A stretch of DNA of 41,533 nucleotides, from assembly GCA_001775965.1 (NCBI GenBank), contig MEZG01000068.1, positions 1-41,533 of the forward strand, written 5' to 3'. Below the pieces are notes generated by a model. It was not told where the DNA came from, did no database searches, and worked only from the letters and a program-made list of their open reading frames with translations. The position numbers were made by a program, and so were the translations under genes. Within the stretch, counting starts at the first letter, position 1. Every line of letters starts with the position of its first letter. Of this stretch, positions 8,616 through 40,701 are shown piece by piece. Source of the DNA: Candidatus Bathyarchaeota archaeon RBG_13_60_20. Lineage in GTDB: Archaea; Thermoproteota; Bathyarchaeia; TCS64.

Positions 8616-8798
8616 TTAACCCTCAACAGTGATAGCCTGGTTGGGGCAGGCGTTGATGCACGCCATGCACATGATGCAGTCGTCGGCGCGGACGGGGTCG
8701 GCCTGGCCGTTAACCAACTCGTAGACGTTCATGGGGCAGATGTCGACGCATACCCCGTCTCCATCACACTTTGTCTTGTCAATTGTGACTGTGGGCAT
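8616..8798 (-). CDS. Small dicluster-type ferredoxin (60 aa)
   Basis: ATG at 8798; motifs CDGDGVCVDICP and CIMCMACINACP. Confidence 0.92.
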   Translation of the reverse strand: MPTVTIDKTKCDGDGVCVDICPMNVYELVNGQADPVRADDCIMCMACINACPNQAITVEG

Positions 8799-8860
8799 TC
8801 TTACACCACTCCCCATTACGTCTCCTAGAGTTTTTTAAACCTTTGCCGGGCATGGCGGGG

Positions 8861-9436
8861 TTAACGGATCGAGTCCTCGGGCCCCGTACCCCGCTTGGCC
8901 AGAGCAAGTAAGCCCGGTATCTCCTCGGGGCTCTGGAGTGTCCGCACCCCCTCCATGGCCTCAAGCTTCCTGACGTTGTCTGCGTCCTCCTTCCTGACCC
9001 TGAGCTTCAATGCCCGCCCGTTGGGCAGGGTGGTCATGGTGGTGCCCTCATGGTAGTCCACAGGCATGACGTAGACGGGGACGAAGCCCTTCAGGGCCTG
9101 GATCGCTGCGTTCGTCACGAGGGTGTCCGAGATGCCGTGGGCGATCTTGGCCACTGTGTTGCTGGTGGCTGGGGCCACAAGGACCGCGTCGAACTCGCCC
9201 AGCTGGAGCCTGCCCGCGACGAAAGGCGTGTTGGCGTCCACCTCGACCCAGTGCCTGTCGAAGCTCACCTGAAGCATCTCAGAAACCTTGTAGTACTTGG
9301 CCACCTGGGCGCCGGCCTTCGACATGAAGACCTCTACCTCCAGGCTCTCGCCGTGTCTCTCCTTCAGGCCCCTCATGACCTCGATGGTCTCCTTGAGTTT
9401 GTCCCCGCAACCGGTCACGCACCAGGCCACCTTCAA
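8861..9436 (-). CDS. afpA: Archaeoflavoprotein AfpA (HFCD flavoprotein family)
   Basis: VAWCVTGCGDKL, DANTPFVAGRLQLG, APATSNTVAKIAHGISDTLVTNA and LRVRKED motifs. Confidence 0.88.
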   Translation of the reverse strand: MKVAWCVTGCGDKLKETIEVMRGLKERHGESLEVEVFMSKAGAQVAKYYKVSEMLQVSFDRHWVEVDANTPFVAGRLQLGEFDAVLVAPATSNTVAKIAHGISDTLVTNAAIQALKGFVPVYVMPVDYHEGTTMTTLPNGRALKLRVRKEDADNVRKLEAMEGVRTLQSPEEIPGLLALAKRGTGPEDSIR

Positions 9437-10017
9437 GCCTTCTGCCGCTCCTTCAGGTACCTGTCGAGACGCTTCACGGTCTTGCGGAGGGCCTTGAGGC
9501 CCACCTCATCCATCTTTAGGCCTTCCAGGGAATCCTTGGACCATAGGGATGCTCCCAGGTTGGCCCCGAAGAAGCCTCCGCTCAGGGCCTGGGCCCCGTT
9601 CAGCGTGAGGAAGGCTATGATCTGCTGTATGGCCAGCTCCTGGCCCCCCGACCTGTCCCCGCCGACCGCGATGGCCACGCCGGGCTTGTCCCTGAAGGCG
9701 TCCCTGTTCCTGGCCAGCAGGGCCCTCGACCTGTCCATAACCGCCTTCAGCTGCGCGCTCACCCCGCCGTTGTACACAGGAGTCGCGAAGACGTAGGCCT
9801 CGGCCTCCTCAATGAGCGGGTAGAGCCCCTGGACGTCATCCTGGACGGCACAGCCCTCGCCTCCGAGGCAGAGGTCGCAGTGGGTGCAGAAGCCTATTCG
9901 TTTCCCCCTGACGCCCCAGAACACCGTCTCGTTACCCTCACCTAGCGCCCTCAAAGCCTCCCTGAGGGCGTGCTCCGTGGCCTGCTGCCTGGGGCTGCCG
10001 CAGACGCCCAGAATCAT
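9433..10017 (-). CDS. Iron-sulfur flavoprotein (Isf-like, multimeric flavodoxin family)
   Basis: ATG 10017 (MILGVCGSPR); compact Cys motif CTHCDLCLGGEGC; ATPVYNG and AVGGDRSGGQE. Confidence 0.9.
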   Translation of the reverse strand: MILGVCGSPRQQATEHALREALRALGEGNETVFWGVRGKRIGFCTHCDLCLGGEGCAVQDDVQGLYPLIEEAEAYVFATPVYNGGVSAQLKAVMDRSRALLARNRDAFRDKPGVAIAVGGDRSGGQELAIQQIIAFLTLNGAQALSGGFFGANLGASLWSKDSLEGLKMDEVGLKALRKTVKRLDRYLKERQKA

Positions 10018-10108
10018 GAGGCTGATCTGGGGGCCCGAAGCTTTAATGCTTGCCCCAGTCCTCATCAACTGTTTTAAACCATAATGCACCAATGCATATG
10101 ATTCGCGC

Positions 10109-11941
10109 TTGACCGTCAGGGTTCTTATCAACCCCACCAACAGGGAGCTTGAAGCCGAGGTAGGCGACATCCTTCTGGATAGGATGCGGGAGGAGGGGGT
10201 GCACATCGAGGCCCTGTGCGGGGGGAAGGGGTTCTGCGGTAAGTGTAGGGTTATCCTTGAGCGTGGGAGGGTGGAGAAGAGGTCTACGACCCCCGACAAG
10301 CTCCTGTCTGAGGAGGAGTTGTCAGCGGGGTACCACCTGGCCTGCATGGTGCGCCTAGTGGAGGACTGCGAATTCACCATACCGGCCGAGAGCAGGGTGG
10401 ACAGCCCCAAGATACTCATGAACGCATCGCTTGAGCTGCCCGAGAGGAGCCCTGCGGCTTCCAAGCACCTCCTCGCCTCGCCAGGTGGGCCGGCGGGGAG
10501 CCCCCTGCTCGCCTATAGACGGCTGAGTCTCAGGGACTACCAGGGGACGGCGCCCAGGGTGTCGGACCAGGTGTACGAGGCCCTGAACAGGATGAGGGAG
10601 GGCGAGGTCACGGTGACGGTGTCGAGGACCAGCGGCTACCCTGAGGTCATCATGGCTGAGCCGGGAGACGCTAGGAACCGCTGCGTCGGGCTGGCCATGG
10701 ACATAGGGACCACGACCATCGTATCCGTGCTGGCCGACCTAAGCACGGGCCGTGTGCTGGGCACAGCCTCCGGGATGAACAAACAGATCACCTACGGGGA
10801 GGACCTGGTGACCAGGGTGGCCGTGGCCAGGAACGAGGAGGGGCTGAGGAAGCTTCAGAGAGCTGCGGTCTCGGCTATCAACGAGGTGCTGGGCCGACTC
10901 TACAGCGACACTGGCCTTTCCCCGGGAGAGGTCGTGGACGTCGCTGTGGGGGGCAACACAGTCATGAACCACCTCTTCGCGGGGCTGGAGTCCGGCTACC
11001 TTGAGATCGCTAACGTAGAGGTTCCCCGCGAACCCATCATAGTGAAGGCGGGCGCCGTGGGACTCGACGTGAACCCCGAGGCGTACGTCTACTGCCTTCC
11101 CAACGTGAGCCGCTACCTAGGCGGCGACGCCGTGGGCGACGTAGTAGCCAGCGGAATGCACAGGTCCGGCGAGATGAGCCTCATGATCGACCTGGGCACC
11201 AACGGCGAGATAGTGTTCGGCAACGACAAGTGGCTTTTCAGTTGTAGCTGCGCCTCGGGTCCCGCCTTCGAGGGCGAGGGCGTCCGCCATGGCATGAGGG
11301 CCGCCGTCGGTGGCATCGACCACGTCTGGATCGACCCAGAGACGAAGGAGGCCCGCTTCTCCACCATAGGGGACGCGCCTGCCAAGGGCATATGTGGCTC
11401 GGGGCTCATCGACCTCGTGGCCGAGCTCTTCAGGGCGGGAGTCATGGACTTCAGTGGTAAGTTCGTGGCGTCAGCCCCGTATGTGAGGGAGGGTAAGTGG
11501 GGTATGGAGTACCTTGTTGTCCCGGCCGAGAGAACCTCCATAGGGAAGGATATCGTCCTGACCCAGGGCGACCTGGACTACGTCATAGACTCCAAGGCGG
11601 CTGCCTGCGGCGCCGTCACGGTGCTCATGAAGAAACTGAGGATCGGCATAAACGACGTGAGGCACGTCTACCTGGCTGGGGCCTTCGGCACCTACACGGA
11701 TATGAGGAACGCGACGACCCTGGGAATATTCCCAAAGTTCCCCAACGCCGAGTACCACCCCATAGGGAACGGCTCCCTGTCAGGCGCCTACGCGACGCTG
11801 GTGTCCGTGGAGAAGAGGAGGGAGGCGGCCGATGTGGCCCGGAAGATGGTTTACGTGGACCTGCTGGTGGACGTGGAGTTCATAGAGGAGTACAGCAAGG
11901 CGCTGTACGTGCCAGGCGCCAAGGAGTACTTCCCCGCCTAG
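10109..11941 (+). CDS. Corrinoid activation/regeneration ATPase (RACo/AcsV type; N-terminal 2Fe-2S domain + ASKHA/DUF4445)
   Basis: CGGKGFCGKC...LAC 2Fe-2S motif; DIGTTT, DLGTNGEI, SCASGPAFEG, GICGSG and LAGAFG motifs. Confidence 0.92.
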   Translation: MTVRVLINPTNRELEAEVGDILLDRMREEGVHIEALCGGKGFCGKCRVILERGRVEKRSTTPDKLLSEEELSAGYHLACMVRLVEDCEFTIPAESRVDSPKILMNASLELPERSPAASKHLLASPGGPAGSPLLAYRRLSLRDYQGTAPRVSDQVYEALNRMREGEVTVTVSRTSGYPEVIMAEPGDARNRCVGLAMDIGTTTIVSVLADLSTGRVLGTASGMNKQITYGEDLVTRVAVARNEEGLRKLQRAAVSAINEVLGRLYSDTGLSPGEVVDVAVGGNTVMNHLFAGLESGYLEIANVEVPREPIIVKAGAVGLDVNPEAYVYCLPNVSRYLGGDAVGDVVASGMHRSGEMSLMIDLGTNGEIVFGNDKWLFSCSCASGPAFEGEGVRHGMRAAVGGIDHVWIDPETKEARFSTIGDAPAKGICGSGLIDLVAELFRAGVMDFSGKFVASAPYVREGKWGMEYLVVPAERTSIGKDIVLTQGDLDYVIDSKAAACGAVTVLMKKLRIGINDVRHVYLAGAFGTYTDMRNATTLGIFPKFPNAEYHPIGNGSLSGAYATLVSVEKRREAADVARKMVYVDLLVDVEFIEEYSKALYVPGAKEYFPA

Positions 11942-11976: not shown

Positions 11977-12786
11977 ATGATCCCCTATCACAGGGCAAGG
12001 GGAAACGTGTTGGTTGAGCACAGAGGAACCATCGTTGTGACTGGGAGGGGCGGAACGGGCAAGACCACGTTCACCGCGCTGATGGCCCGCTACCTCCACG
12101 AGAGGGGCGTAGAGCCGATGCTGCTGGTGGACTCCGACCCGGACGAGAGTCTAGCCGAGATGCTGGGCCTCGACCTGGAGGCCGAGGGGAAGCGGTCCAT
12201 AGCCGATGTCCTTTCCGAGATACTTGAGGAGCGCAAGATGACCAGGATGACTGGGATGACGCCCACGGACAAGATCGAGCCATTCCTGTTCCAGGAGTGC
12301 CTCTACGAGGGGCGGGGCTTTTTCGACTTCATAGGCGTGGGCACCAAGTGGATAGAAGGCTGCTACTGTCTGCCGGACCGGAGCCTGGGCCAGATCATGG
12401 AGATGTGGTCGAGCAACTACGTGTACGTCATCGTGGACAGCCCCGCCGGCGTGGAGCACCTGAACAGGAGGATAACCAAGAAGGTGAAGGATGTGTTCAA
12501 CATCCTAGACCCCAGCAAGAAGAGCTTCGACAACGCGGAGCGCAGCCACAAGATCATGAGGGACGTGGACATAGAGTTCGAGAACTACTACCTTGTGGGT
12601 GGGTACAGGTTCACTGCGACGCTGGAGGCTGAGGCCGCCAGGCAGCCCTACAGGTACCTGGGCAGGGTGGAGAGCGACGAAAGGATAGCCGAGTTCAACT
12701 TCCAGGGTAGGTCCCTGCTGGAGCTGCCGGATGGCTCCCCCGCTTACCAGTCCGTGAAGAGGATCATGGTAAAGGCGGGCTACTAG
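11977..12786 (+). CDS. CooC/AcsF-type nickel-insertion ATPase (true start may be a few codons downstream)
   Basis: GRGGTGKTT Walker A variant, DSDPD, EGCYC and DSPAGVEHLNR motifs. Confidence 0.85.
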   Translation: MIPYHRARGNVLVEHRGTIVVTGRGGTGKTTFTALMARYLHERGVEPMLLVDSDPDESLAEMLGLDLEAEGKRSIADVLSEILEERKMTRMTGMTPTDKIEPFLFQECLYEGRGFFDFIGVGTKWIEGCYCLPDRSLGQIMEMWSSNYVYVIVDSPAGVEHLNRRITKKVKDVFNILDPSKKSFDNAERSHKIMRDVDIEFENYYLVGGYRFTATLEAEAARQPYRYLGRVESDERIAEFNFQGRSLLELPDGSPAYQSVKRIMVKAGY

Positions 12787-12797: not shown

Positions 12798-13595
12798 GTG
12801 AAGATAGCTGTAGCGGGGAAGGGCGGCGTTGGTAAGACCTTCGTCTCATCCACCCTGTCCAGGCTGCTGGCCAGGGACGGGTATAACGTGCTGGCCGTGG
12901 ATGCTGACCCCAACCTGAACCTGGCCATGGGCCTGGGGGTCCCCTCCGAGGTTGCCAACGGGATCGTGCCGCTCTCCGACAATGAGGCCCTGGTCAAGGA
13001 GAGGACCGGGGTGTCAGCAGAGGAGGCGTACGCGCCCATCTTCAACATGACCCCCAGAGTCAACGACATAGTGGACAGGTTCGGGGTCACTGCGCCCGAC
13101 GGCGTCAAGCTCCTCGTGATGGGAACCGTCAAGGGCGGGGGCACAGGCTGCATGTGCGGCGCAAACGCGCTTCTCCGCGTCCTGCTGCAGCATCTGCTCA
13201 TCCAGCGTGGAGAGGTCCTGGTCATGGACATGGTGGCCGGCTTGGAGCACCTGGGCAGGGGCACGGCCAGGAGGATGGACGCCATGCTGGTGGTCCTGGA
13301 GCCCCGCATGAAGTCGGTGGACACCATCAGGCGCATCATGAGGCTGGCCCAGGAGATAGAGGTCAAGGAGGTGCTCGCCGTAGGCAACAAGGTGGCTAGG
13401 CCCAAGGACAGGGAGTTCATCCAGAGGAACATGGACGAGCTGGATGTGCCCGTGGTGGCCTACATCCCCTACGACGAGGCGGTGACCGACGCCGACATGG
13501 CCGGGGCGCCCACACTGGACTACGCTCCTGACTCAGAGGCCGTCAAGGCTGTCAGCGGCCTCAAGGGCTACCTCCTAGATCGGTACAAGCCGTAG
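12798..13595 (+). CDS. cooC: CO dehydrogenase maturation ATPase CooC
   Basis: KIAVAGKGGVGKT, DADPNLNL, GCMC and DMVAGLEHLGRGTA motifs; GGAGG upstream of the GTG start. Confidence 0.92.
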   Translation: MKIAVAGKGGVGKTFVSSTLSRLLARDGYNVLAVDADPNLNLAMGLGVPSEVANGIVPLSDNEALVKERTGVSAEEAYAPIFNMTPRVNDIVDRFGVTAPDGVKLLVMGTVKGGGTGCMCGANALLRVLLQHLLIQRGEVLVMDMVAGLEHLGRGTARRMDAMLVVLEPRMKSVDTIRRIMRLAQEIEVKEVLAVGNKVARPKDREFIQRNMDELDVPVVAYIPYDEAVTDADMAGAPTLDYAPDSEAVKAVSGLKGYLLDRYKP

Positions 13596-13613: not shown

Positions 13614-14453
13614 GTGAAGGTCAAGGCAGTCGGCATCAGGACGCGTTACTGGAGACCAGGGACCGATTACGTGGCGGAGATCGTGGGCAGGGTCAAGGGC
13701 CGCGTGGAGGACGGTGATGTGCTCGCCGTCAGCGAGAAGGCGGTGTCCACAGCCTCCGGCCTCATCGTGGACGAGGCGACGACGGAGCCCGGCATGGTCG
13801 CGCGGATTCTCGCGGGCCCTTGGACCAGGAGGATATGGGGCGGGCCCCTTGGGAGGATCACATGCCTCAAGGGGCAGACCCTCCTGAACCTGCGCAATTA
13901 TCCACTCCGCGAGGGGGCCGCCCACAAAGAGGTGGCTCTGCGCATCGCGGGCCTCCTTCAGTCGCTGCGCCACTACTCCGAGGGAGGCATAGACGCCAGC
14001 AACCTCCCCTACTCATACGTGAGCCTACCGCTACCCAACGCCGGCGCGGTGGCTGAGAGGATCAGGGACGCGGTGAAGGCCCGCACGGGCAGGGACGTCA
14101 CAGTGGTCATCGTCGACGGCGACACGACCTTCTCATGGAGGGGCCTTCACCTGGCCCCCCGCAAGGTACAGACGCCCGGCCTGGTGCACCTGGGGGGCTT
14201 CCTGGTCTTCGTCATGGGCAGAGCCCTCGGCCTAAGGCAGCGCCAGACCCCTGTGGCCGTATCGGGCGAACCTATGCCCCCGGACACGGCTCTGTGGCTG
14301 GCCAGGCTTCACCACAGGCTTTGCGGCCGCGGGGCCGGCAGGACCGTGTGGAGCATGTCGGCCAGGCTGGAGACCTCGCTGACGGGCGTAACATGGGAGA
14401 TGCTGGAATCTGTGAGGCACTACCCCGTGACCCTCATACGGTTCGTGGACTAG
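13614..14453 (+). CDS. Coenzyme F420-0:gamma-glutamyl ligase (CofE)-like family protein; substrate uncertain
   Basis: DGDVLAVSEKAVS, GGIDASNLP and VTVVIVDGD motifs of the F420_ligase fold. Confidence 0.78.
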   Translation: MKVKAVGIRTRYWRPGTDYVAEIVGRVKGRVEDGDVLAVSEKAVSTASGLIVDEATTEPGMVARILAGPWTRRIWGGPLGRITCLKGQTLLNLRNYPLREGAAHKEVALRIAGLLQSLRHYSEGGIDASNLPYSYVSLPLPNAGAVAERIRDAVKARTGRDVTVVIVDGDTTFSWRGLHLAPRKVQTPGLVHLGGFLVFVMGRALGLRQRQTPVAVSGEPMPPDTALWLARLHHRLCGRGAGRTVWSMSARLETSLTGVTWEMLESVRHYPVTLIRFVD

Positions 14454-16012
14454 AACAGGTCCTCGTCCTGCATGTAGGACCGCCCCAGCCGTAGGGCCAG
14501 GGCAGCCTTCTCAAGCTCCCTGCCCAGGTAGGCAGCGTGGTCCAGCTTGGTTACGAGGTTAAGGCGGATGATGGTCTGGTACACCTCCCTGGCGTCCACG
14601 CCCTTGATGATTGTCCCGGGCGCGTCGCTCCCCTGGAGGTAGTGTAGGGCTACTATCTCCCCGGCCTCCCTGTCCACTTGGACCTTGAACCACCCCGCCT
14701 CGTCGGGCCTGAAAACATCCTCGCCGACGGCCTCCGCGACTCGGGCCGATCCATAGAGGCTCCCGTCGTACGCCTCCTCCGTCCACCTCTTCTCCTTGAG
14801 CAGCAGCAGGTCCACGCCCAGGTCCTTGGGCACCGTCCCCTTCGCCTCCGCCAGAAACATCATCTGGGAGGCTCGGACAGCCTCCCGGACGCTGCCCCTC
14901 GCCTTGACGCTGTGCTCCGGGACATGCAGCATGTTGGCCCCGGCCTCCCGGGCAAGAGCCGCCAGGGTGGCGTTGACACCCTGGGAGTCGGCGTCGATGA
15001 GCTCTGTGGCGTTGCCTATGCCGAAGAGGAGCGGCACCCCGGGGCGCAGCTCCTTGAAGCGCCTGTAGCTCTCTAGCGCCACCAGCAGCCCGGGACGCAG
15101 GAGAGGCTCCGCGACTAGGTCGCCTATGACCCTGGTGACGCCCAGCTCCCTGGCCCGCTTGATGTTCTCGTCCAGGGCTCGGACCCTCTCCTGGGGAGTG
15201 CTGGGGAGACGACCCCGATTCATGTCCGTGGGGAGGACCACCACTGCCTGTTCGGTCAAGAGGGGCGCCGTTTCCTCCAGGTTCCCCGCGTCCACGCTTA
15301 GGACCAGGTCCACGCCGGCCTCCGCCGCGGCGCCTATCTCGGCGGGGTCAAGGGTGTCGATGCTCACCGGGAGCCCCGCGGCATCCCTCACGGCGGAGAC
15401 CAGGGGCCCGACGGCTTCGGGCCTCGGATCGCCCGCCAACATCCCTATGTCGATGACGTGGGCGCCCTGCCCCTTGTAGTACTTGGCCCTGTCGGCCACC
15501 TCGGCCAGGCTGAGGAGGGGGGCGCTCACCACCTCGGCTATGACTCTCATGGGCAGCCCGTCGCTGACCGGCAGAACGCGCTCTCCTCCGCCCACCACGA
15601 TGCCACCCCTGGACCTGAATACGCTTTCCCAGTCCGCCTCGGCCCTCTCCAGCTCCCCTAAGGTTCTCCTAGCCGCCTGGTCCCTGATGAGGTCCGATGC
15701 CGGGAGGGTCCTGGACAGCTGGACGCCCGATGACAGGGCCAGGGGTATGTCGGCGAAGTGGACCGGGCCCTTGTAGGTGGGGACCCCCGTGGCCTCCTCC
15801 ACACGCGACACGTCGCCGCTCACCGTCCCAGGCATCAGGATCATGTCATAGCCGTCAAGGTTCATTCGGCTGAGTGCGCTGGCCGCGAAGCCGGGGGTTA
15901 TGAACGAGGCCACGGACACGGGCAGGGCCTTGACGTCCACGCCACCGAGTCCATCCACCGCCCTTCGGACCGCCGCCTCGGCGAGCCTCCCTGTGACGAC
16001 GAGGACCCTCAA
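14450..16012 (-). CDS. Dihydropteroate synthase-related protein (archaeal MJ0107-like) with C-terminal DUF4346
   Basis: RVLVVTGRLA, VIAEVVSAP, GAHVIDIG, PVSIDTLDP, GIGNATELIDADSQGVNA, PKDLGVDLLLLKEKR and HAAYLGRELEKA motifs. Confidence 0.9.
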   Translation of the reverse strand: MRVLVVTGRLAEAAVRRAVDGLGGVDVKALPVSVASFITPGFAASALSRMNLDGYDMILMPGTVSGDVSRVEEATGVPTYKGPVHFADIPLALSSGVQLSRTLPASDLIRDQAARRTLGELERAEADWESVFRSRGGIVVGGGERVLPVSDGLPMRVIAEVVSAPLLSLAEVADRAKYYKGQGAHVIDIGMLAGDPRPEAVGPLVSAVRDAAGLPVSIDTLDPAEIGAAAEAGVDLVLSVDAGNLEETAPLLTEQAVVVLPTDMNRGRLPSTPQERVRALDENIKRARELGVTRVIGDLVAEPLLRPGLLVALESYRRFKELRPGVPLLFGIGNATELIDADSQGVNATLAALAREAGANMLHVPEHSVKARGSVREAVRASQMMFLAEAKGTVPKDLGVDLLLLKEKRWTEEAYDGSLYGSARVAEAVGEDVFRPDEAGWFKVQVDREAGEIVALHYLQGSDAPGTIIKGVDAREVYQTIIRLNLVTKLDHAAYLGRELEKAALALRLGRSYMQDEDLF

Positions 16013-16018: not shown

Positions 16019-16972
16019 TCAACCCTCGCGGATGACTGCGCCCACGTTGTCGGCGGCCGCGACGAATGCTTCGCCCCGCCCGTCCTTGTTGAGGAACCGT
16101 TCGAGGGACGCTGCAAGCCTCCCCGCCTGGGCCCGTCCTTCGGCCAGCCCGTAGAGAGCCGGCCCCCATGAGCTCTGGCCAGCGCCAAGGGCCCCCTCCG
16201 CCAGGAGGTAGTTCACCCCCGCCTCGATCCCGGGGTGGCTGTAGACGCCCCCCTGGACCTTGGCCCAGTACGAGCCGAACATAGTGTCCAGCTTGGTCAT
16301 GGCGTCCCCGAACCTCTCTATGTCAGGCTCTATGATGGACGGGATCATCTGGAGGAGCACCAGCCTAGCGACGTCGGCGACGACCTCGGCCGGCGGCGGC
16401 TCCAAGGCCCTGAATGCGGCCTTCTCCTGCTCGCCGCTGACCCCCCTCTTGATGTCCGGGATGCCTATAACGAACAGCCAGTCGTCAGGCACCCTGTGCC
16501 TGAAGACCAGTGGCGGCACGGCATCCCTGCGCGTCAAGGCGTGGCCACCGTCTACAATAAAGCCTCCCCCAAGGAAGGCGTGGACCCCTACCCCTGAGAC
16601 TCTGCTGCGGCCGAAGCGGACGGCGATCTCCTCCGGCTCTAGGCTCAGGTCGTGTAATCGTGCCAGGGCGGTGCCCAGGGCCATGACCAGCTGGGTGCCT
16701 GAGCCGAAGCCCGTGTGCTCGGGTATGTCCTCCACGATCTCCACGTCCACGCCAGAATCGACGCCGCCGTCCCTCAGGAGGGTCTCGACGATGTTCGCGG
16801 CCCTGTCCGACCTGGCGCCCCTGATCCTCGTCTCGCCGCTGTCACTGACCTTCACTGTGAGCCGCGGCCGATCCACGGCGACCCCCACGCTCCCGTGGAT
16901 CCTGCCCAGGTCGCCCCTCATGTCCACTATACCGAACTGCAGCCTCGACGGGGTGGTTATGCTGATCTCTAC
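16019..16972 (-). CDS. mptG: Beta-ribofuranosylaminobenzene 5'-phosphate (RFAP) synthase, GHMP superfamily; start codon uncertain
   Basis: TPSRLQFG, PEHTGFGSGTQL, SGVGVHAFLGGGFIVDGGH and GQSSWGP motifs; H4MPT gene context. Confidence 0.9.
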   Translation of the reverse strand, partial: VEISITTPSRLQFGIVDMRGDLGRIHGSVGVAVDRPRLTVKVSDSGETRIRGARSDRAANIVETLLRDGGVDSGVDVEIVEDIPEHTGFGSGTQLVMALGTALARLHDLSLEPEEIAVRFGRSRVSGVGVHAFLGGGFIVDGGHALTRRDAVPPLVFRHRVPDDWLFVIGIPDIKRGVSGEQEKAAFRALEPPPAEVVADVARLVLLQMIPSIIEPDIERFGDAMTKLDTMFGSYWAKVQGGVYSHPGIEAGVNYLLAEGALGAGQSSWGPALYGLAEGRAQAGRLAASLERFLNKDGRGEAFVAAADNVGAVIREG

Positions 16973-20734: not shown

Positions 20735-20820
20735 CCGCAAGGCGCAGATGTTTTATCGGCTCTCTTCAGTTGTATAGTTGGCTTATCTTGTCAGACGTAA
20801 GCAAAACCGTTTCAGGCTCC

Positions 20821-21081: not shown

Positions 21082-21109
21082 TCACCGAGTAGCGAGCCTC
21101 AGACTGATT

Positions 21110-21193: not shown

Positions 21194-21211
21194 CTGATAG
21201 GTGTCCTAATC

Positions 21212-28196: not shown

Positions 28197-28202
28197 GGGA
28201 CC

Positions 28203-31964: not shown

Positions 31965-31969
31965 GCGGG

Positions 31970-33413: not shown

Positions 33414-33959
33414 CTACTTTCCCTCCTCTAAGCGTGATACTATCTTATCTACTGTGTCCTTCCAGTCGGGCTCCGGCATCCAGCCGAGGCTCCACTCGGC
33501 GTTGGGCTGGTAGCTCCTCTCCAGGCTTATGGTCCTGAGGCTGCTGAAGTTCTTGAGCCCGGACTCCACGAGCCACTCCATGTAGTAGGGGAACCCTGCG
33601 AAGACCACGGCGTCGTATGAGCCCAGGCCGTCGAAGCCCCTCCAGTCGGGGTCGCTCAGGTGCTTGCCCAGCACGAAGATGCCCATGCTGTACGCCTTAG
33701 TGACGCCCCTGCGCCTGAACTCTCCCACCAGGTGGCCGGTTGCCACTACCGTGATCTTCTCGTTCCTCATGACCCTGATTGCGGTGTCAACCAGGTCCCC
33801 GTCTTTGGTCTTCACAGCCGTCGATTCAGACCCTATGACGAGTAGGGGCCTCTTAGCCCTGGATATGAGTTTGGCGGCCACATCGGGGTTGGGGACGACG
33901 TTGGCCTTCTTGGGGCCGGCTATCTCGGCCGTCTGCCCCGTGTTCATCTTTGCGGCCAC
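33414..33959 (-). CDS. cdhB: ACDS complex epsilon subunit
   Basis: ISRAKRPLLVIG, DPDWRGFDGLGSYD, LKNFS and YQPNAEWS motifs; lies between cdhA and cdhC. Confidence 0.94.
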   Translation of the reverse strand: MAAKMNTGQTAEIAGPKKANVVPNPDVAAKLISRAKRPLLVIGSESTAVKTKDGDLVDTAIRVMRNEKITVVATGHLVGEFRRRGVTKAYSMGIFVLGKHLSDPDWRGFDGLGSYDAVVFAGFPYYMEWLVESGLKNFSSLRTISLERSYQPNAEWSLGWMPEPDWKDTVDKIVSRLEEGK

Positions 33960-36304
33960 TATTCCCGCCTCCTCACCATCCTGTCGAGGAGGGTCGGATC
34001 CGGTGAGGCTATCCTGTCCTCAACCCAGCCCTTGGCCTCAAGTATCTTCATTATCTCGTCCTTCATGGTGAAGGGCACGTCCTGTCCGCGGCGGACGAAG
34101 AGGTGCAGGTCGTCGGGCATGGCCCCGTAGTGCTTCTTGTGCAGGTCTATGTAGTGGCTGAGCTTGACTGCGCGGCCCTTGCTGGTGTCGTTGGGCCTCA
34201 TGGCCAGCTTGGCGATCATGACCATGGCCTCCTCCAGGGTCTCGGCGGCGTAGAACAGATGCTCAGGGGCGGGGCCCACGTAGACCTCCTGGCCGTCCCT
34301 GGCGTTGAACACCTTCCAGTCCTCCTCCTTGCCCTGGTCTCCCAGAAGCATCCTGCGGTACTTGGAGCCGTGGGGACCAACCACAACAGGTATCCCCAGC
34401 CTCCAGCAGCCCGCCGCGATGGAGGCCGCTTTCTGGCTCATGGCGCCCCACGCGACGCCCACGGCGCCTACGCGGTTGTATATGTAGTCGGCTATCTCCT
34501 CGTAGTTGGCCCTAAGGGGCCGCTTGGCGAAGATGTTGGCGATCTTGATGGCGGCCCCCGTGATGTGGCCGTTGGAGACGCAGCTGCCAACGTTAACCAG
34601 GCCTCCGGCGTCGAAGTTGCCCGGGTACTTCTCGTAGAGGTTCTGGCCCTCCTCGTCCCTGGTCATGGCTATGTTCATGGCGGAGCAACCCGAGGTCACG
34701 ACGATGAACCGCCTCTTGAGGAACTCCTCGGCTATGGCGGCCACGTCGCCTCCCCCAGCCGGGTAGTTGGCGCAGCCCACCAGGGCCACGACCCCCGGAA
34801 TCTCTCCGAAGACTATTGGGCTGCCCACCTCCCTGATCTCCACGTCCTGGATGGCGCCCCTGCCCACCCTTATGGGGTACTTCTCGTTGACCAGCTGGTC
34901 CTTGGACGCCTGGGTTATCATGGTCAGTATGGGCAGGTCGGCGGGGCAGGCGCTCTCGCAGCGGCCGCACCCGACGCACAAGTCGTTGAGCTCTGCTAGG
35001 GGCCCGTAGTCGCCCTCCTTGGCGGCCGTCATGGCGTCCATGATGGGCAGGGTGTTGGGGCAGGCCCTTATGCACTCCATGCAGGTCCGACACTTGGACG
35101 CGATCTCCTTGAGGTCGCCCAGGTCCACCAGCTTCTTTTCGCCCCGCCGCTTTCTGACGGCCATGGCCGTCTTCACGGCGATCTCGCCCACCTTCCTGGG
35201 CTCCGTGACTAGGGCGCCCGGCGACCTACCCGAGATGAGGTCGTTCACCACGGCCTCGGCAGGGTCGTGGGTCCTGTCAGGTAGCCCCAGGCAGCTCTTC
35301 TCGCTGGTGGCGAGGACGGGGACGCCGATTAGCTTCGCCTGGTCCATGACGTCCGTGCGGATGCACTGCTCGTCCACGACGATGAGGTCGGGTATCCCGG
35401 ACTTGATGAACTTGAGCTGCCACGAGATGGGGCCCACGATCTTGGATCGCTTGTTGTACCTGCTCATGTCGTGGGCGGTGCAGCAGAGTCCGCCCACCTC
35501 CACCTGGTCGAAGAGGTCGTGGTCCATGAGGTAGTCGATGATGTCCACGCTGGGCAACACGTTATGGCCAATGCACATGATGACCGGCTTATCGGGGTTG
35601 ATCGTGCCGTAGCCCAGTTCAGCCAGCGGCGCCTCTGGGTCGCCTTTTGGTAGGCCGAGCGTCGCGATCTGCATGAGGTCGGCCACCTCCAGGGCGACGT
35701 GGTCCAGCATCCCCGCGTGGAAGGCCTTGGACTCGAAGTCGATGTTGTCACCCTCCTGGCCAGTGTGGGCCGCGGCCACCAACTGCACTATCTGGGTCTC
35801 CACGTAGTCCAGCGCCTCCTCCAGGTCCCCGATGGTCTGGGGCTTTATGCCGCAGACGAGCCTGACGTGAGGCGCCTCGACATTGGTGTTCAGCGCAGCC
35901 ACCAGGGGCGTGTCCTTCCCGAACTCCTGTATGAGGTGGTTGAGCATGTGGCGGCCGTGAGCGGCGTGGGTCGCCGCGCCTATACAGCAGGCCAACAACA
36001 CGATCCTGGACTGCTGCGCGGGCATGCTGATGCCGCAGGCGCCCTTCTTGTCGCCCGTGAGGTCGCACTTGCCATAGGTGCACAGGCAGCACAGATCGCA
36101 GAAGGGCATGTAGAAGGGCTTGTACCTGTTTAGGAGCTTCCTGTCCCAGCTTCTCAGCGTGCTCACGGAGGGCATGGGTGTGGGCCCCATGGGTTCCTCC
36201 CACTCCTCGTCCATGATCCGGCCGATCTGGATCTCCAGGCCCTTGAAGGTGCCGAGGGTGGATGAGAGTTCATCGAACTTGAGCTTTACGTTCCTGTTCG
36301 CCAT
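33959..36304 (-). CDS. cdhA: ACDS complex alpha subunit (archaeal Ni-CO dehydrogenase)
   Basis: PMGPTPMP, CDLCCLCTYGKC, IGHNV, GLCCT, DEQC, two extra CxxCxxCxxxCP motifs, VGC, SGC and GSCVSN. Confidence 0.98.
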   Translation of the reverse strand: MANRNVKLKFDELSSTLGTFKGLEIQIGRIMDEEWEEPMGPTPMPSVSTLRSWDRKLLNRYKPFYMPFCDLCCLCTYGKCDLTGDKKGACGISMPAQQSRIVLLACCIGAATHAAHGRHMLNHLIQEFGKDTPLVAALNTNVEAPHVRLVCGIKPQTIGDLEEALDYVETQIVQLVAAAHTGQEGDNIDFESKAFHAGMLDHVALEVADLMQIATLGLPKGDPEAPLAELGYGTINPDKPVIMCIGHNVLPSVDIIDYLMDHDLFDQVEVGGLCCTAHDMSRYNKRSKIVGPISWQLKFIKSGIPDLIVVDEQCIRTDVMDQAKLIGVPVLATSEKSCLGLPDRTHDPAEAVVNDLISGRSPGALVTEPRKVGEIAVKTAMAVRKRRGEKKLVDLGDLKEIASKCRTCMECIRACPNTLPIMDAMTAAKEGDYGPLAELNDLCVGCGRCESACPADLPILTMITQASKDQLVNEKYPIRVGRGAIQDVEIREVGSPIVFGEIPGVVALVGCANYPAGGGDVAAIAEEFLKRRFIVVTSGCSAMNIAMTRDEEGQNLYEKYPGNFDAGGLVNVGSCVSNGHITGAAIKIANIFAKRPLRANYEEIADYIYNRVGAVGVAWGAMSQKAASIAAGCWRLGIPVVVGPHGSKYRRMLLGDQGKEEDWKVFNARDGQEVYVGPAPEHLFYAAETLEEAMVMIAKLAMRPNDTSKGRAVKLSHYIDLHKKHYGAMPDDLHLFVRRGQDVPFTMKDEIMKILEAKGWVEDRIASPDPTLLDRMVRRRE

Positions 36305-36457
36305 ATGGGTTTTCTCTCCTTGAATCTTATATCATGTTGCATCGTAGTATATTATTTATAGCATTTACAGAAAGTAGCAAGTTTAGCTAGATTTACTAGC
36401 ACTTGATGCAAAATTCTAAAAACCACGCAGCATAATATGTTAAAAGGAGGATTAAAC
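36305..36457. promoter_or_regulatory. AT-rich divergent promoter region cdhA / metF
   Basis: TATA-like TATATTATTTATA (36348-36360); AGGAGG (36445-36450) before TTG 36458; inverted pair TTGCATC (36337-36343) / GATGCAA (36405-36411). Confidence 0.55.
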
Positions 36458-37381
36458 TTGACAAATCGACCAGCATACAGCCAGCTAGTCAAGGACCTTA
36501 GGTCGGGGAAGTTCGTCCTGACCGGCGAGCTGGAGCCCGAGAAGGTAACCAGCCTGGACGAGATAATCATCAGCGCAAAGGCCATGAAGCCCTACGTCGT
36601 GGCGGCCAATGTGACCGACAACCCCCTGGCCTTCGCCTACATGAATAGCCTAGTCCCCTCCTGGGTGATACAGAAGGAGGTGGGCCTGGAGGCCGTCTAC
36701 CAGATGACCATCAGGGACAGGAACAGGCTTGCCATAGTCTCCGACGTCCTAGCGGCGTCCTACCTGGGGATAAAGAACATACTGGCCATATCCGGGGACC
36801 ACACGGTCCTCGGCGACAACCGGGGCGCCCTGAGCGTGTACGACCTCGACAGCGCCCAGTTCGTCTACCTGCTCCACAAGATGATAGACGAGGGCGTGGA
36901 CCTGGCCGGGAACGAGATCCACGGCAAGGTGGGGATCAACGTGGGAATAGCGGCCAACCCAAACGCCGACCCGCTGATGCCGGAGGTGCTGAAGATCGGG
37001 CGCAAGACCAAGATCGGCGCCGACTTCATCCAGACCCAGACTATGTTCGACATCGACAAGACCAAGACGTTCCTCAAGGAGGTGGAGAAGTACAACTGCC
37101 CGGTGCTGGTGGGGGTGTTCCCTCTGAAGAGCTTCGGCATAGCCGACTTCTTCGACAAGAACATTCCCGGCGTGAAGGTGCCGCCGGAGCTGCTGGCTTC
37201 CATGGCTAAGGCCAAGGAGGAGCCAGACAAGGAGAGGAGGAGCGCCCTCTACGACGAGGTGAACTTGGAGTTCTTCGTGCCCTTCATCAAGGAGATCAGG
37301 AAGACCACCAAGGCCTCGGGCATCCACATCATGGCTGTGCTCTACGAGCGCATCTTTGGGCCGCTGCTGGAGAACTTCTGA
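36458..37381 (+). CDS. metF: Methylenetetrahydrofolate reductase family, MetF
   Basis: GELEP, NVTDNP, QMTIRDRNRLAI, ISGDH, VYDLDS and GADFIQTQ motifs; TTG start after AGGAGG (alternative ATG 36437). Confidence 0.92.
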   Translation: MTNRPAYSQLVKDLRSGKFVLTGELEPEKVTSLDEIIISAKAMKPYVVAANVTDNPLAFAYMNSLVPSWVIQKEVGLEAVYQMTIRDRNRLAIVSDVLAASYLGIKNILAISGDHTVLGDNRGALSVYDLDSAQFVYLLHKMIDEGVDLAGNEIHGKVGINVGIAANPNADPLMPEVLKIGRKTKIGADFIQTQTMFDIDKTKTFLKEVEKYNCPVLVGVFPLKSFGIADFFDKNIPGVKVPPELLASMAKAKEEPDKERRSALYDEVNLEFFVPFIKEIRKTTKASGIHIMAVLYERIFGPLLENF

Positions 37382-37392: not shown

Positions 37393-38028
37393 ATGATAAT
37401 AACGAAGGCGAAACCCGAGGAAGAACTGAACGAGATGCTGAAGCCCTACGAGAAGCTGTTCGTGGTGGGCTGCGGAACATGCTCCACGAGCTGCATGACG
37501 GGCGGCGAGGAGCAGGTGGCCGAGATGGTGAAGAAGCTGGGCGACCGGGCCATAGGCTCTGCCGTCGTGGAGGACCCCTGCGACCTGAGGATAGCCCGAA
37601 AGGAGCTGAAGGAGTTCAAGGCCAAGGTCCAGGGGGCTGACGCGGTGCTCGTCATGAGCTGCGGCGCCGGTGTCCAGACCGTCGGCGACTACTCCAAGAA
37701 GATAGTGCTGCCAGCCCTGGACACCCTGTTCATAGGCCAGACGGAGCGCCTGGGGAAGTTCCACGACGTCTGCAAGGCGTGCGGCGAGTGCATCCTGGAC
37801 GAGACGGGGGGCGTCTGCCCTGTCACCCGCTGCGCCAAGGGGCTGCTCAACGGGCCCTGCGGCGGCCAGGTGAAGGGCAAGTGCGAGGTGGGCAAATACG
37901 AGAACGACTGCGCCTGGGTGCTCATATACGACAGGCTCAAGGAGCAGGGCCGACCCGAGCTCTTCGAGTTGTTCAGGCCGCCCAGGGATAACAGCAAGAA
38001 GGTGCTCACCCAGCATCACGTCTTCTAG
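37393..38028 (+). CDS. metV: MetV, Fe-S subunit of methylene-tetrahydropterin reductase (MTHFR C-terminal domain family)
   Basis: GCGTCSTSCMTGG, SCGAGVQ and CKACGEC...CPVTRCAKGLLNGPCGG...CEV...CAW motifs; directly follows metF. Confidence 0.92.
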   Translation: MIITKAKPEEELNEMLKPYEKLFVVGCGTCSTSCMTGGEEQVAEMVKKLGDRAIGSAVVEDPCDLRIARKELKEFKAKVQGADAVLVMSCGAGVQTVGDYSKKIVLPALDTLFIGQTERLGKFHDVCKACGECILDETGGVCPVTRCAKGLLNGPCGGQVKGKCEVGKYENDCAWVLIYDRLKEQGRPELFELFRPPRDNSKKVLTQHHVF

Positions 38029-38104
38029 CCTTTTCCCCGGCTTCACCATACCTTCATATGCACTGGCTCCCCACTCAGACTTGTTCAAGGTTCGGTGAAG
38101 CTTA

Positions 38105-39847
38105 TTGAAGTGCAAGGGTTTGAGGGACGACACTGTGTCAGTCGTCATTGGGGGCGAGGCGGGGCAGGGCATCAGCAGGAGCGGGGAGCTCTTGGGGAAG
38201 GCGCTGATGCGCTGTGGGTTCCACTGTTACGGGACCATGGACTACCCTAGCCTCATACGGGGTGGCCATAACTTCTACCAGCTGAGGGCGTCCTCCAGGC
38301 CCGTGTACAGCCAGACGCCCTACGCCGATGTCCTCATAGCCCTCAACAGGGAGTCGGTGGGGCTCCATCTAGGAAGCATGAACGCGGGCGGGGGCGTCAT
38401 CCACGACGAGCGCGACGCGCTGGAGGAGGGGCTGGGCAGGGACCGGGGAATCAACCTCTACCCGGTGCCCCTCACGGACATCGTGAAGGAGCTGGGGGGC
38501 CCGGATATCATGAGGAACACGGTGGCCCTGGGCGCAGCCTCGGCCCTCATCGGCCTCGACGCGGGCACGCTCAAGCAGGTGGTGGCCGAGACCTTCGAGG
38601 GGCGGGAGAAGATCATCAAGATGAACGAGGACGCCATCCAGAGGGGATACACGTACGTGGCCGGGCAAGACTACGGGTTCGGGTGCTGCTTGGAGTCAGG
38701 GGAGCGCCCCCGAGGGCAGTGGCTCACCGGGAACGACGCGATTGCCCTGGGCGCTATGGCCGCCGGATGCAAGTTCTACTCTGCTTACCCCATGACCCCC
38801 GCGAGCCCCCTCCTTCACTACTTCGCGAGCCACGACAAGGCGGGGGGCACGGTGGCTATCCAGACAGAGTCCGAGATAGCGGCCGCCATGATGGCCATAG
38901 GCGCCTCCTACGCTGGGATACGCAGCATGACGGGGACCAGTGGTGGCGGCTTCAGCCTCATGACGGAGAGTCTGAGCCTGGCCGCCATGTCCGAGACGCC
39001 CCTGGTGGTCATGCTGGGGCAGAGACCGGGGCCCAGCACAGGCCTCGCCACCTACTCGGCCCAGGGGGACCTCCTCTTCGCCGTGTACGGAGCCCACGGA
39101 GAGTTCCAGAGGATCGTCGTGGCGCCTGGGGACGTGGATGAGTGCTTCTACCTGGCAGCCGAGGCGTTCAACCTAGCCGAGCGGTTCCAGATACCTGTCA
39201 TCCTGCTGACGGACAAGACTCTAGTGGAGAGTAACCAGACCACTGACGCCTTCGACCTGTCCAGGGTCAGCATAGACAGGGGTAAGCTGGTTGAGTCTTG
39301 GGAGGGGCCCGGAGAGTACCTGAGGTACAGGGACGATGAGGACGGCGTTTCCCCCCGGGCTTTCCCGGGCGCCGAGGGCATACTGGTCCCCGCGAACAGC
39401 AACGAGCATCTGGAGAACGGGTTAAGCACCTCCAGCTCCGAGGCCGTGGCTAAGATGGTGGACAAGCGCTTCAGGAAGGCACAGCATATAAGGGCCGCCG
39501 TGGAGGGGCTCCAGCCAATCAGGGTCTACGGGGATAAGAGACCCAGGGTCACCCTGGTGGGGTGGGGCGGGACAAAGGGGCCCGCCCTGGAGGCCCTCGG
39601 GATGCTCAGGGACGACGGCGTGAAGGCGAGGTTCGTGCAGGTGGTGTTCATGGAGCCGTTCCCCGGCGGCCTGGAGAAGTACCTAAAGGGCACCTGCGTC
39701 CTCTTCGAGGACAACAGGTCGGCTCAGCTGGGGACCCTCATCAGGCTCAACACCGGGTATGCCTTCAAGCACGTGGGGCTCCGCTACGACGGCCGCCCAT
39801 TCAACCCGGGTGAGATCAGGGACAGGGTGCTGGAGGTGCTCGGATGA
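38105..39847 (+). CDS. 2-oxoacid:ferredoxin oxidoreductase alpha subunit (gamma-alpha fusion, KorA-type)
   Basis: GGEAGQG, YPSLIRGGHN, AYPMTPAS, ESEIAA, TSGGGFSLM and QRPGPSTG motifs. Confidence 0.95.
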   Translation: MKCKGLRDDTVSVVIGGEAGQGISRSGELLGKALMRCGFHCYGTMDYPSLIRGGHNFYQLRASSRPVYSQTPYADVLIALNRESVGLHLGSMNAGGGVIHDERDALEEGLGRDRGINLYPVPLTDIVKELGGPDIMRNTVALGAASALIGLDAGTLKQVVAETFEGREKIIKMNEDAIQRGYTYVAGQDYGFGCCLESGERPRGQWLTGNDAIALGAMAAGCKFYSAYPMTPASPLLHYFASHDKAGGTVAIQTESEIAAAMMAIGASYAGIRSMTGTSGGGFSLMTESLSLAAMSETPLVVMLGQRPGPSTGLATYSAQGDLLFAVYGAHGEFQRIVVAPGDVDECFYLAAEAFNLAERFQIPVILLTDKTLVESNQTTDAFDLSRVSIDRGKLVESWEGPGEYLRYRDDEDGVSPRAFPGAEGILVPANSNEHLENGLSTSSSEAVAKMVDKRFRKAQHIRAAVEGLQPIRVYGDKRPRVTLVGWGGTKGPALEALGMLRDDGVKARFVQVVFMEPFPGGLEKYLKGTCVLFEDNRSAQLGTLIRLNTGYAFKHVGLRYDGRPFNPGEIRDRVLEVLG

Positions 39848-40701
39848 GCCTCACCATGAAGGATCTGGACACGGGCGCCACCAACACCTGGTGCCCTGGA
39901 TGCGGCAATTTCGCTATCCTCATGACCGTGAAACAGGCCCTCATCCAGCTGGGCCTCAACCCCAGCCAGGTGGTGGCCGTCTCCGGGATCGGGTGCCACG
40001 GCAAGACCACGGACTACCTCAAGGTGAACACCTTCCACGTGATCCACGGCCGCGTGCTGCCCGCGGCCACGGCCATAAAGCTGGCCAACCACGGGCTCAC
40101 AGTGCTGGGCTTCGCAGGGGACGGCGACGCCTTCAACATAGGGATGGGCCACTTCCCCCACGCGGCCCGCCGCAACGTGAACATGGCTTACATAGTGCAC
40201 GACAACCTCATCTACGGGCTCACCACGGGCCAGGCCAGCCCCACCAGCAGGCAGGGCCTCGTCACCAAGACCACGCCCAGGGGCAGCGCGGAGCCCGGCG
40301 TCAACCCCCTCACCCAGAGCCTCACCGGGGGCGCCACCTTCGTGGCCCGCACCTTCGCGGGCGAGGCAAAGCACATGACCGAGGTGCTGAAGCGGGCAAT
40401 AACCCACAGGGGATTCGCCGTGGTGGACGTGCTCCAGCCCTGCGTCACCTTCAACAGGGTGAACACCTACGAGTTCTACAAGCAGCGCGTCCGCAAGCTG
40501 GAGGAGGAGGGCCACGACGAGGGCGACTTCGAGGCCGCGTACAGGCGGGCCCAGGAGTGGGGCGACGTCATACCCATCGGCGTCTTCTACGTGGAGGAGC
40601 GGCCCACCTATGAGGATGGCTTCCCCGCCCTAGCCGGGGGTCCCCTGGTCGGTCAGCCCCTCAGCAGGGACCTTTCCGGGCTCATGGCCGAGTTCAAGTA
40701 G
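39844..40701 (+). CDS. 2-oxoacid:ferredoxin oxidoreductase beta subunit (TPP-binding, KorB-type)
   Basis: WCPGCGNF, SGIGC, HGR, GDGD, YGLTTGQASPT and VLQPCVTFN motifs. Confidence 0.95.
   Translation: MSLTMKDLDTGATNTWCPGCGNFAILMTVKQALIQLGLNPSQVVAVSGIGCHGKTTDYLKVNTFHVIHGRVLPAATAIKLANHGLTVLGFAGDGDAFNIGMGHFPHAARRNVNMAYIVHDNLIYGLTTGQASPTSRQGLVTKTTPRGSAEPGVNPLTQSLTGGATFVARTFAGEAKHMTEVLKRAITHRGFAVVDVLQPCVTFNRVNTYEFYKQRVRKLEEEGHDEGDFEAAYRRAQEWGDVIPIGVFYVEERPTYEDGFPALAGGPLVGQPLSRDLSGLMAEFK

Follow-up and report, generated by a model that had tools for sequence, protein, structure and literature searches.

Methylotrophic bacteria carry 'archaeal-like' genomic islands for tetrahydromethanopterin (H4MPT) and methylofuran metabolism in which pathway genes lie beside cofactor-biosynthesis genes: the passages of PMC3615186 drawn on here list mch-orf5-orf7-fae-orf17, orf19-orf20-afpA-orf21-orf22 and fhcCDAB, and those of PMC11533326 give the order mch, alpha-L-glutamate ligase, 'triphosphoribosyl-dephospho-CoA synthase'. 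Here we describe a block of 32 genes of the archaeal Wood-Ljungdahl (WL) pathway that occupies positions 8616-40701 of the window, by which we mean the whole stretch of 41,533 nucleotides analysed, the leading 41.5 kb of contig C68 (46,835 bases) of Candidatus Bathyarchaeota archaeon RBG_13_60_20. This block is very probably a vertically inherited supercluster of non-methanogenic Bathyarchaeia, conserved within its genus, present with its blocks rearranged in one or more other genera of the family, and not autonomous. With the methylotroph islands it shares mch in the company of an alpha-L-glutamate ligase (orf5/MyfB) and a CitG homologue (orf7), afpA and mptG being further common members. It differs from them in adding carbon monoxide dehydrogenase/acetyl-CoA synthase (CODH/ACS), CooC, RACo, MetFV, nucleotidyltransferase (NTase) and CofE-like genes, in an Fwd complex that is redox-competent rather than of the Fhc type, and in that no homologue of MfnB (orf22) was found. 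We take orf19 and orf20 of the islands to be DUF447 and the DHPS-like gene, respectively.

In acetogenic bacteria, acs/WL clusters bring CODH/ACS together with cooC, acsV/RACo, metFV, folD and fhs, and the block resembles them in uniting catalysis, Ni-insertion ATPases, a corrinoid reactivator and MetFV. It departs from them in its archaeal carriers, H4MPT and methanofuran, in its five-subunit archaeal Cdh, and in having folD-fhs outside and cofactor-biosynthesis genes inside. In model methanogens, these one-carbon (C1) functions are mostly scattered over the chromosome. Within Bathyarchaeia, the H4MPT WL pathway has already been described in most orders, non-methanogenic members having the same Fwd, Ftr, Mch, Mtd, Mer and CODH/ACS without Mcr, and some orders are reported to have a folate methyl branch as well (PMC10321748, PMC7886697). 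What these two papers offer in the portions used here is gene presence, not arrangement, whereas the present locus is a 32-kb block complete with maturation and cofactor genes; PMC7886697 also cautions against reading the direction of flux, towards acetogenesis or towards acetyl-CoA oxidation, from sequence.

With the pathway already known for Bathyarchaeia, metabolic inference adds little. The value of the locus is its arrangement, in which catalysis, the upkeep of Ni clusters and corrinoid, and carrier biosynthesis stand side by side in one conserved block, and so integrated a block provides an unusually clean genomic context for families without a known reaction. Beyond this degree of integration, three leads give reason for follow-up: the NTase family, the CofE-like ligase and the missing methanofuran genes.

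Composition and conservation of the block

The initial annotation, made from sequence alone, had described a C1-metabolism cluster of ~32 kb at 8616-40701, and this description holds. A scan of the open reading frames (ORFs) of the window in six frames with Pfam and NCBIfam assigns 32 genes within 32.1 kb, and their order recurs in seven of seven same-genus genomes. Both edges are gene ends, namely the ferredoxin stop at 8616 and, at 40701, the stop of the beta subunit of a 2-oxoacid:ferredoxin oxidoreductase (OFOR). Intergenic gaps range from -103 to 144 bp, the coding share is ~97%, and 4-bp overlaps occur at three convergent unit ends. Sixteen genes belong to WL catalysis and maturation (FwdD/B/A/C, Ftr, Mch, CdhA-E, MetF, MetV, RACo and two CooC-like proteins), four to recognised cofactor-biosynthesis families (beta-RFAP synthase MptG, a DHPS-like protein of TIGR00284, a RimK/MptN-like ligase and AfpA), two to electron carriers (a 2x[4Fe-4S] ferredoxin and an Isf-type FMN_red protein) and two to OFOR. 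The other eight are uncharacterised: CofE-like, DUF447, CitG-like, two NTases, CBS, a PK_C-like protein of 168 aa and an ArsR-type helix-turn-helix (HTH) protein. Judged by gene strand, they fall into about eight predicted transcription units of alternating direction: Fd-AfpA-Isf (minus), RACo-CooC1-CooC2-CofE-like (plus), DHPS-like-MptG-DUF447-NTase1 (minus), CitG-like (plus), CBS (minus), PK_C-like-HTH-Mch-FwdD-FwdB-FwdA-Ftr-FwdC-MptN-like-NTase2 (plus), CdhA-B-C-D-E (minus) and MetF-MetV-OFOR alpha/gamma-OFOR beta (plus). A look-up of RNA data sets for positions 20200-30199 of the window gave no entry.

FwdA, FwdB, FwdC, Ftr, Mch and all five Cdh subunits pass their curated cut-offs. On the plus strand lie Mch (21212..22159; TIGR03120, 352.4 bits against a cut-off of 228.8), FwdD (22164..22571; Molydop_binding, E 1.7e-15; FwdD model, E 7e-20), FwdB of the Cys type (22580..23854; TIGR03129, 563.9 against 327.8 bits; start set inside the longer ORF 22286-23854), FwdA (23851..25554; TIGR03121, 829 against 392.75), Ftr between fwdA and fwdC (25551..26477; NF002554, 427.2 against 297) and FwdC (26479..27327; TIGR03122, 259.9 against 130.65). 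The minus strand carries CdhE, the gamma or corrinoid Fe-S subunit (29216..30631; NF003195, 577.8 against 306), CdhD, delta (30636..31925; NF003375, 527.3 against 488; start set inside ORF 30636-32561), CdhC, the beta subunit with the A-cluster (31970..33412; NF003379, 689 against 372), CdhB, epsilon (33414..33959; TIGR00315, 117.2 against 101.2) and CdhA, the alpha subunit or CODH (33959..36304; TIGR00314, 1183.2 against 781.3). Maturation is represented on the plus strand by a RACo/AcsV-like reductive activator of corrinoid protein (10109..11941; Fer2, Raco_middle and RACo_C_ter, E down to 3e-89; 472 bits with the AcsV model, below its cut-off of 800) and by two CooC-like Ni-insertion ATPases, the divergent CooC1 (11977..12786; PDB 3kje CooC, E 2.2e-13) and CooC2 (12798..13595; 3kje, E 2.7e-42). 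Aligned to 3kje, both keep the P-loop and the CxC metal motif of CooC.

Fwd, Ftr and Mch would provide the CO2-to-methenyl steps of the H4MPT methyl branch, and the five-subunit CODH/ACS would be helped by the two CooC-type Ni-insertion ATPases and by the corrinoid reactivator RACo. MetFV and the electron-carrier flavoproteins would be joined to this module, and MptG, the DHPS-like protein, DUF447, the CitG-like protein, the two NTases, the MptN-like ligase and the CofE-like ligase would build or tailor the C1 carrier. Drawing Mtd, Mer and Fhs-FolD from other loci, the module could interconvert CO2 and acetyl-CoA reversibly, and its clustering would reflect that enzymes, metallocentre assembly and carrier supply are regulated and inherited together. 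Direct support for the supercluster comes from gene content, intact active-site motifs, colinearity, co-occurrence and co-loss.

To compare gene order, we took 20 kb on either side of mch in 20 relatives and placed 42 window proteins there by tblastn. All seven same-genus genomes with long enough contigs (G002, G003, G005, G007, G011, G018 and G019; protein identity 41-92%) have the same order and orientation from RACo/CooC through NTase2, and cdhEDCBA comes next in each of the six whose contig continues. AfpA-Isf lies upstream in four of five genus genomes, being relocated behind metV in G005. At least two further species (L077, L084) show, around the CofE-like gene, the same left half leading into mch-fwd, and another genus of the family keeps the right half, HTH-mch-fwd-ftr-fwdC-mptN-NTase2-cdhEDCBA-metFV. 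In G133, a genome of this other genus, the blocks are permuted over ~45 kb, with the left half after metFV: mch ... fwd-ftr-fwdC-mptN-NTase2 ... cdhEDCBA-metFV-RACo-CooC1-CooC2-CofE-like-DHPS-like-MptG-DUF447-NTase1-CitG-like-AfpA-Isf-PK_C-like. Four more loci (L083, L101, L106 and L110) have this type of order, and other genera and orders retain sub-blocks only. The supercluster is ancestral at about family level, assembled from older modules; the nearest homologues and syntenic loci carry Bathyarchaeota or Bathyarchaeia labels. A lack of synteny in relatives, named beforehand as what would speak against the module, is not what was seen: the order is colinear in 7/7 same-genus genomes and permuted in another genus. 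One species of the same genus, G008, looks like a case of whole-module loss: in this 96% complete genome Mch, the NTase family, the CofE-like gene and CdhA are all missing together.

The NTase, CitG-like and CofE-like genes

In the initial annotation, the tight clustering made the embedded genes candidates for C1 functions by association. For AfpA, the CitG-like gene and the MptN-like gene this is not new, judging from what PMC3615186, PMC11533326 and PMC8141765 contribute here, and the same would hold for DUF447 if orf19 is that gene; the NTase and CofE-like genes remain as leads. The competing explanation with most in its favour holds that the embedded genes are hitch-hikers with unrelated roles, an NTase with an oligonucleotide/oligosaccharide-binding (OB) fold acting on RNA or DNA and the CBS, HTH and PK_C-like proteins having nothing to do with the pathway. 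A Pol-beta NTase domain joined to an OB fold is indeed a typical nucleic-acid architecture, and the conservation of the CBS, HTH and PK_C-like genes is seen within the family only. We nevertheless consider this explanation unlikely, on the strength of the linkage described below for the NTase and CofE-like genes.

The two NTases of the initial annotation are true paralogues, with 33% identity (E 2e-41) and the GS...DxD motif kept in both copies. Paralogue 1, of subfamily A, lies at 17656..18660 on the minus strand, and paralogue 2, of subfamily B, at 28203..29219 on the plus strand, with an N-terminal beta domain, a Pol-beta NTase domain and a C-terminal OB fold. This architecture is seen in an NTase structure model of pLDDT 93.9, in which VIA-align matches residues 114-237 to Pol X and terminal uridylyltransferases (TUTases; Z 7.5-8.0) and residues 247-338 to SSB/RPA OB folds (Z 8.0-8.5), a Z of ~8 being in the range of common folds. 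Foldseek found no whole-chain relative of the model in the PDB at E <= 0.001, a point that leaves room for an unrelated role, and PDB sequence searches with the NTases gave no useful match.

Linkage to the pathway, on the other hand, is consistent and speaks against hitch-hiking. Each of five genus genomes examined has exactly two NTase copies, both in the cluster. Across a class sample of 121 genomes, the NTase family occurs in 97 and Mch in 100: both are present in 89 and both missing in 13, while eight genomes have the NTase without Mch and 11 have Mch without the NTase, counts in which part of the negatives was inferred by comparing tables and for which kinship inflates any test. The joint losses favour a functional tie, whereas the 11 of 100 Mch-positive genomes without an NTase favour hitch-hiking. 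Both genes have been placed in 79 genomes, and in 30 of the 33 that carry them on one contig an NTase lies no more than 15 kb from mch. In a tree of 28 copies, four subfamilies that predate the orders are resolved, and these hold their neighbours across orders: NTase1 clades with copies beside CitG-like genes (support 100/99) and NTase2 clades with copies behind MptN-like/fwd genes. By sequence, the NTase family thus appears linked class-wide to mch, fwd and CitG-like genes, and the association of these uncharacterised genes with WL genes, which had been put forward as the point to check, is borne out by the cluster-only copies in 5/5 genomes and by the co-loss in G008. As a separate observation, one NTase match lies inside a 773-aa open frame (G091:C77:1877-2830), which may be a fusion protein and could hint at partners.

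The CitG-like gene (18693..19655, plus strand; PF01874, E 1.1e-71) and the NTase1 gene diverge across 32 bp. CitG/CitX and MdcB/MdcG systems likewise pair a CitG-family protein with a partner of nucleotidyltransferase fold. The block differs from them in that the Pfam scan found no acyl carrier protein or lyase genes in the cluster, in that the CitG-like protein reaches 55-64 bits with the CitG/MdcB equivalogs against cut-offs of 272-282, and in the additional N-terminal and OB domains of its NTases, which have no CitX or MdcG family among their Pfam matches listed up to E 1. To our knowledge, several steps of methanopterin side-chain synthesis have no assigned enzyme, and with its NTase, CitG-like and CofE-like proteins the block offers concrete candidates for expression and assay. 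By analogy, chemistry in the style of CitG/CitX might supply the unassigned steps of the H4MPT tail: with ATP as donor, the CitG-like protein would attach a 5-triphospho-alpha-ribosyl unit to the ribitol of an H4MPT precursor, and the NTase paralogues would then join the alpha-phosphate of that unit to hydroxyglutarate with release of pyrophosphate. The broader proposal that the uncharacterised genes are missing C1-carrier tailoring enzymes—for the H4MPT tail, for glutamylation linked to CODH/ACS, or for a scavenged or non-canonical formyl carrier—is a tentative one, which we hold as doubtful.

The CofE-like ligase (13614..14453, plus strand; PF01996, E 5e-18) was also considered as the CofE of F420 synthesis and ruled out in that role: it reaches 47.9 bits with TIGR01916 against a cut-off of 180.65, and a separate true CofE, at 306-311 bits, is encoded elsewhere in all four relatives searched. 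The gene is single-copy in 91 of 121 class genomes. Among 80 of its loci in GTDB species, 65 have at least one WL or cofactor gene, and in 39 of the 65 loci with enough upstream sequence CooC2 lies directly upstream on the same strand (CdhE in two more), an association that hitch-hiking would not predict. Three genera of its own family have the operon layout cdhABCDE-cooC-cooC-CofE-like, and in two other families the gene follows on the same strand 0.6-1.2 kb past cdhABCDE with one CooC or none between; Baldrarchaeota- and Methanomethylicia-labelled loci place it instead beside ftr, NTase and fwd genes. Ending cdhABCDE-cooC operons in several archaeal lineages, the ligase might glutamylate a pterin (or furan) carrier for CODH/ACS. 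Its match in G047 (C35:8450-9295) lies inside a 617-aa open frame, which may likewise be a fusion protein and could hint at partners.

Pathway, origin and dependence on other loci

Some features of the fwd genes recall the bacterial-style formyltransferase/hydrolase complex (Fhc) that releases formate in methylotrophs: ftr sits among them much as fhcD does within fhcCDAB (as listed in PMC3615186), and the Pfam Molybdopterin match of FwdB is weak (E 1.7e-5). FwdD is present, however, and FwdB, aligned with 5t5i_B, keeps both the Cys-His metal ligands of the active site and the N-terminal Fe-S Cys motif; it also matches the B subunits of solved Fwd/Fmd structures far more closely (E 1e-134 to 1e-139) than the methylotroph Fhc B subunit 6s6y_B (E 1.3e-15). 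FwdB is therefore of the dehydrogenase type and not an Fhc-type hydrolase, and an Fhc-like identity of the fwd genes, ruled out by the retained Cys-His, is very improbable for the locus. In family f9 (G042, G064, G069, G083 and G088), Mch matches lie within open frames of ~600 aa, twice the usual length, which suggests that Mch is fused to another domain there.

Recent transfer as a genomic island, or a chimeric assembly, might also explain a block of this size, given a GC content slightly above the genome mean (0.634 against 0.608) and an order that varies between genera. Against both stands the identical order in seven independent assemblies, which makes mis-assembly unlikely, as well as the retention of sub-blocks up to the level of order and class. 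Furthermore, the tRNA and Rfam searches of the window found nothing, no integrase is among the Pfam matches, and the flanking NaPi-PhoU, Ogt and Maf genes are likewise syntenic in G018. With synteny kept and with neither a tRNA, an Rfam match nor a break in GC, we reject this explanation as extremely unlikely.

That the pathway is methanogenic or alkane-oxidising, with mcr and mtr simply missed in a metagenome-assembled genome (MAG) of 1.22 Mb, 86 contigs and 64% completeness, is barely credible: although a class-level relative (G037, the single McrA-positive genome among 16 other relatives sampled) also clusters mch-fwd-ftr, McrA was found in 0/24 same-genus genomes, many of these being 90-97% complete, MtrA was found in 0/5 genomes, and the MAG itself gave no match to McrA, in a search that matched control genomes, or to MtrH. 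A non-methanogenic lineage is well supported, and the failure to find McrA in the genome and its genus, and MtrA in the five genomes searched, supports a non-methanogenic WL module. Of the earlier statements, the one that the window holds neither mcr nor mtr is confirmed and the one that the module is non-methanogenic is supported, the latter also agreeing with the kept FwdB motifs and with Cdh subunits above their cut-offs.

What did not survive is the idea that the module is self-contained; of the overall interpretation, the non-methanogenic WL module with kept synteny stands without that attribute. The mtd gene is on contig C86 of the same genome (330 bits), outside the block, and a folD-fhs operon lies 1.9 kb from it (C86 10189-15405; L059), so that folate- and H4MPT-branch genes missing from the supercluster are grouped elsewhere. 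Mer is encoded on other contigs in four of four near-complete relatives (402-416 bits against a cut-off of 348.7), true CofE also lies elsewhere, and MfnA and MfnB were not found. Fhs occurs in 5/5 genomes, and the genes of a folate methyl branch are divided between C86 (Fhs and FolD) and the window (MetF and MetV). With Mtd, Mer, Fhs, FolD and MetFV, the genus appears to encode a complete H4MPT methyl branch as well as a folate branch; additionally, genes resembling ADP-forming acetyl-CoA synthetase, present in 5/5 genomes, would make acetate formation possible. In G002, true Mer and true CofE are 1.6 kb apart (contig C25, 15031-18377), and the Mer match contains one TAG.

Several observations weigh against the block as an integrated, vertically inherited module of this pathway. 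Neither metFV nor OFOR is a fixed member, metFV following cdhA in five of six and OFOR standing at the block end in two of four testable genus genomes, and MetFV may serve the folate branch instead of H4MPT, Fhs-FolD being present. The absences of mcr, mtr, mer and Mfn genes are weak in the 64% complete genome alone, and their support comes from relatives; for mer, for instance, the best match in this MAG reaches 95.5 bits against the cut-off of 348.7, and the gene counts as not recovered there. MfnB (PF04476) was found in 0/5 genus genomes and in 0/10 genus genomes of the class sample, together 13 distinct genomes, and MfnA was above its cut-off in 0/5, in searches that covered these two proteins and that matched control genomes, which points to a gap in the supply of the Fwd/Ftr cofactor. 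Class-wide, MfnB occurs in 29 of 121 genomes and 73 of 100 Mch-positive genomes lack it; without MfnA and MfnB, methanofuran might be scavenged or a non-canonical formyl carrier made. Our full-text literature search listed no paper joining methanofuran biosynthesis or MfnB with Bathyarchae* terms, and the apparent lack of MfnA and MfnB beside intact Fwd and Ftr raises the question of the formyl carrier in abundant sediment archaea. In the part of PMC8141765 used here, the extension of methanofuran by additional glutamates has no assigned enzymes. In four genomes (G037, G053, G058 and G078), MfnB lies 1.2-1.9 kb from the CofE-like gene, a proximity that counts as a single event since all four belong to one lineage, f9.

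Remaining genes of the block and its flanks

Three electron-carrier and flavoprotein genes open the block on the minus strand: a 66-aa 2x[4Fe-4S] ferredoxin (8616..8816; Fer4 families, E 2.7e-13), archaeoflavoprotein AfpA (8861..9436; TIGR02699, 248.6 bits against a cut-off of 192.45) and an Isf-type iron-sulfur flavoprotein (9433..10017; FMN_red, E 8e-30), whose start was set inside the longer ORF 9433-10464 and whose translation has a compact N-terminal Cys cluster. With the DmrX model TIGR02700, AfpA reaches 151 bits over positions 1-142 only, below the cut-off of 251, and the ferredoxin matches positions 143-195 (E 1.6e-7), generic ferredoxin models scoring higher for it. AfpA and the adjacent ferredoxin (8616-9436) could possibly represent a split form of a fused DmrX-type dihydromethanopterin reductase.

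Among the pterin and carrier genes, the DHPS-like protein of the MptH type (14450..16012, minus; DUF6513, Pterin_bind and DUF4346) reaches 372.4 bits with TIGR00284 against a cut-off of 256.65. The beta-RFAP synthase family protein MptG (16019..17071, minus) passes TIGR00144 (182.6 against 113.5) and falls short of the stricter NF040726 (207.7 against 328); given a 103-bp overlap of this ORF with DUF447, translation probably begins at an internal start. The DUF447 protein (16969..17616, minus; PF04289, E 1.7e-21) matches the structural-genomics entries 2iml and 2ptf at E ~1e-11. The RimK-family alpha-L-glutamate ligase resembling MptN/MyfB (27324..28196, plus) passes TIGR00768 (196.1 against 143.4) and stays below the MptN model (265.1 against 350), so that, like RACo and the CitG-like and CofE-like proteins, it is a family member below an equivalog cut-off. 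According to the part of PMC8141765 used here, Orf5/MyfB, the bacterial MptN homologue, glutamylates methylofuran, which means that the MptN-like gene behind fwdC may act for either carrier.

The plus strand ends the block with MetF, a methylene-tetrahydrofolate (or possibly methylene-H4MPT) reductase-like protein (36437..37381; PF02219, E 3.9e-27), MetV (37393..38028; DUF5981, PF12225, E 3.8e-34), a 2-oxoacid:acceptor oxidoreductase alpha/gamma fusion (38105..39847; TIGR03710, 618.5 bits against a cut-off of 482.75) and the OFOR beta subunit (39844..40701; NF008820, 406.8 against 402).

The CBS-pair gene (19652..20083, minus; PF00571, E 3.5e-16) is in the same place in 7/7 genus genomes. The 168-aa PK_C-like protein (20228..20734, plus), which had been called COG1751, has a weak PK_C match (E 0.0029) and a weak match to PDB 1t57 (E 0.002); its gene is on the plus strand in 7/7 genus genomes and is retained in permuted clusters. 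The ArsR-type HTH regulator (20770..21081, plus; HTH_20, E 2.6e-6; NF033788, E 4e-7) keeps its place within the genus. The 12-mer CGCAGATGTTTT has exactly two copies in the window, against 0.03 expected, at 20743-20754 and 21163-21174, upstream of the HTH gene and of mch, and may be an operator or promoter element; among relatives, only the closest has an 11-base core of it ahead of mch (L004 979-989). The stretch before 8.6 kb holds ordinary housekeeping genes, namely fibrillarin, RNase HII, glycosyltransferases, an M81 peptidase, Ogt, Maf and a Na/Pi transporter with PhoU, and contig C68 runs on for 5.3 kb past the end of the window.

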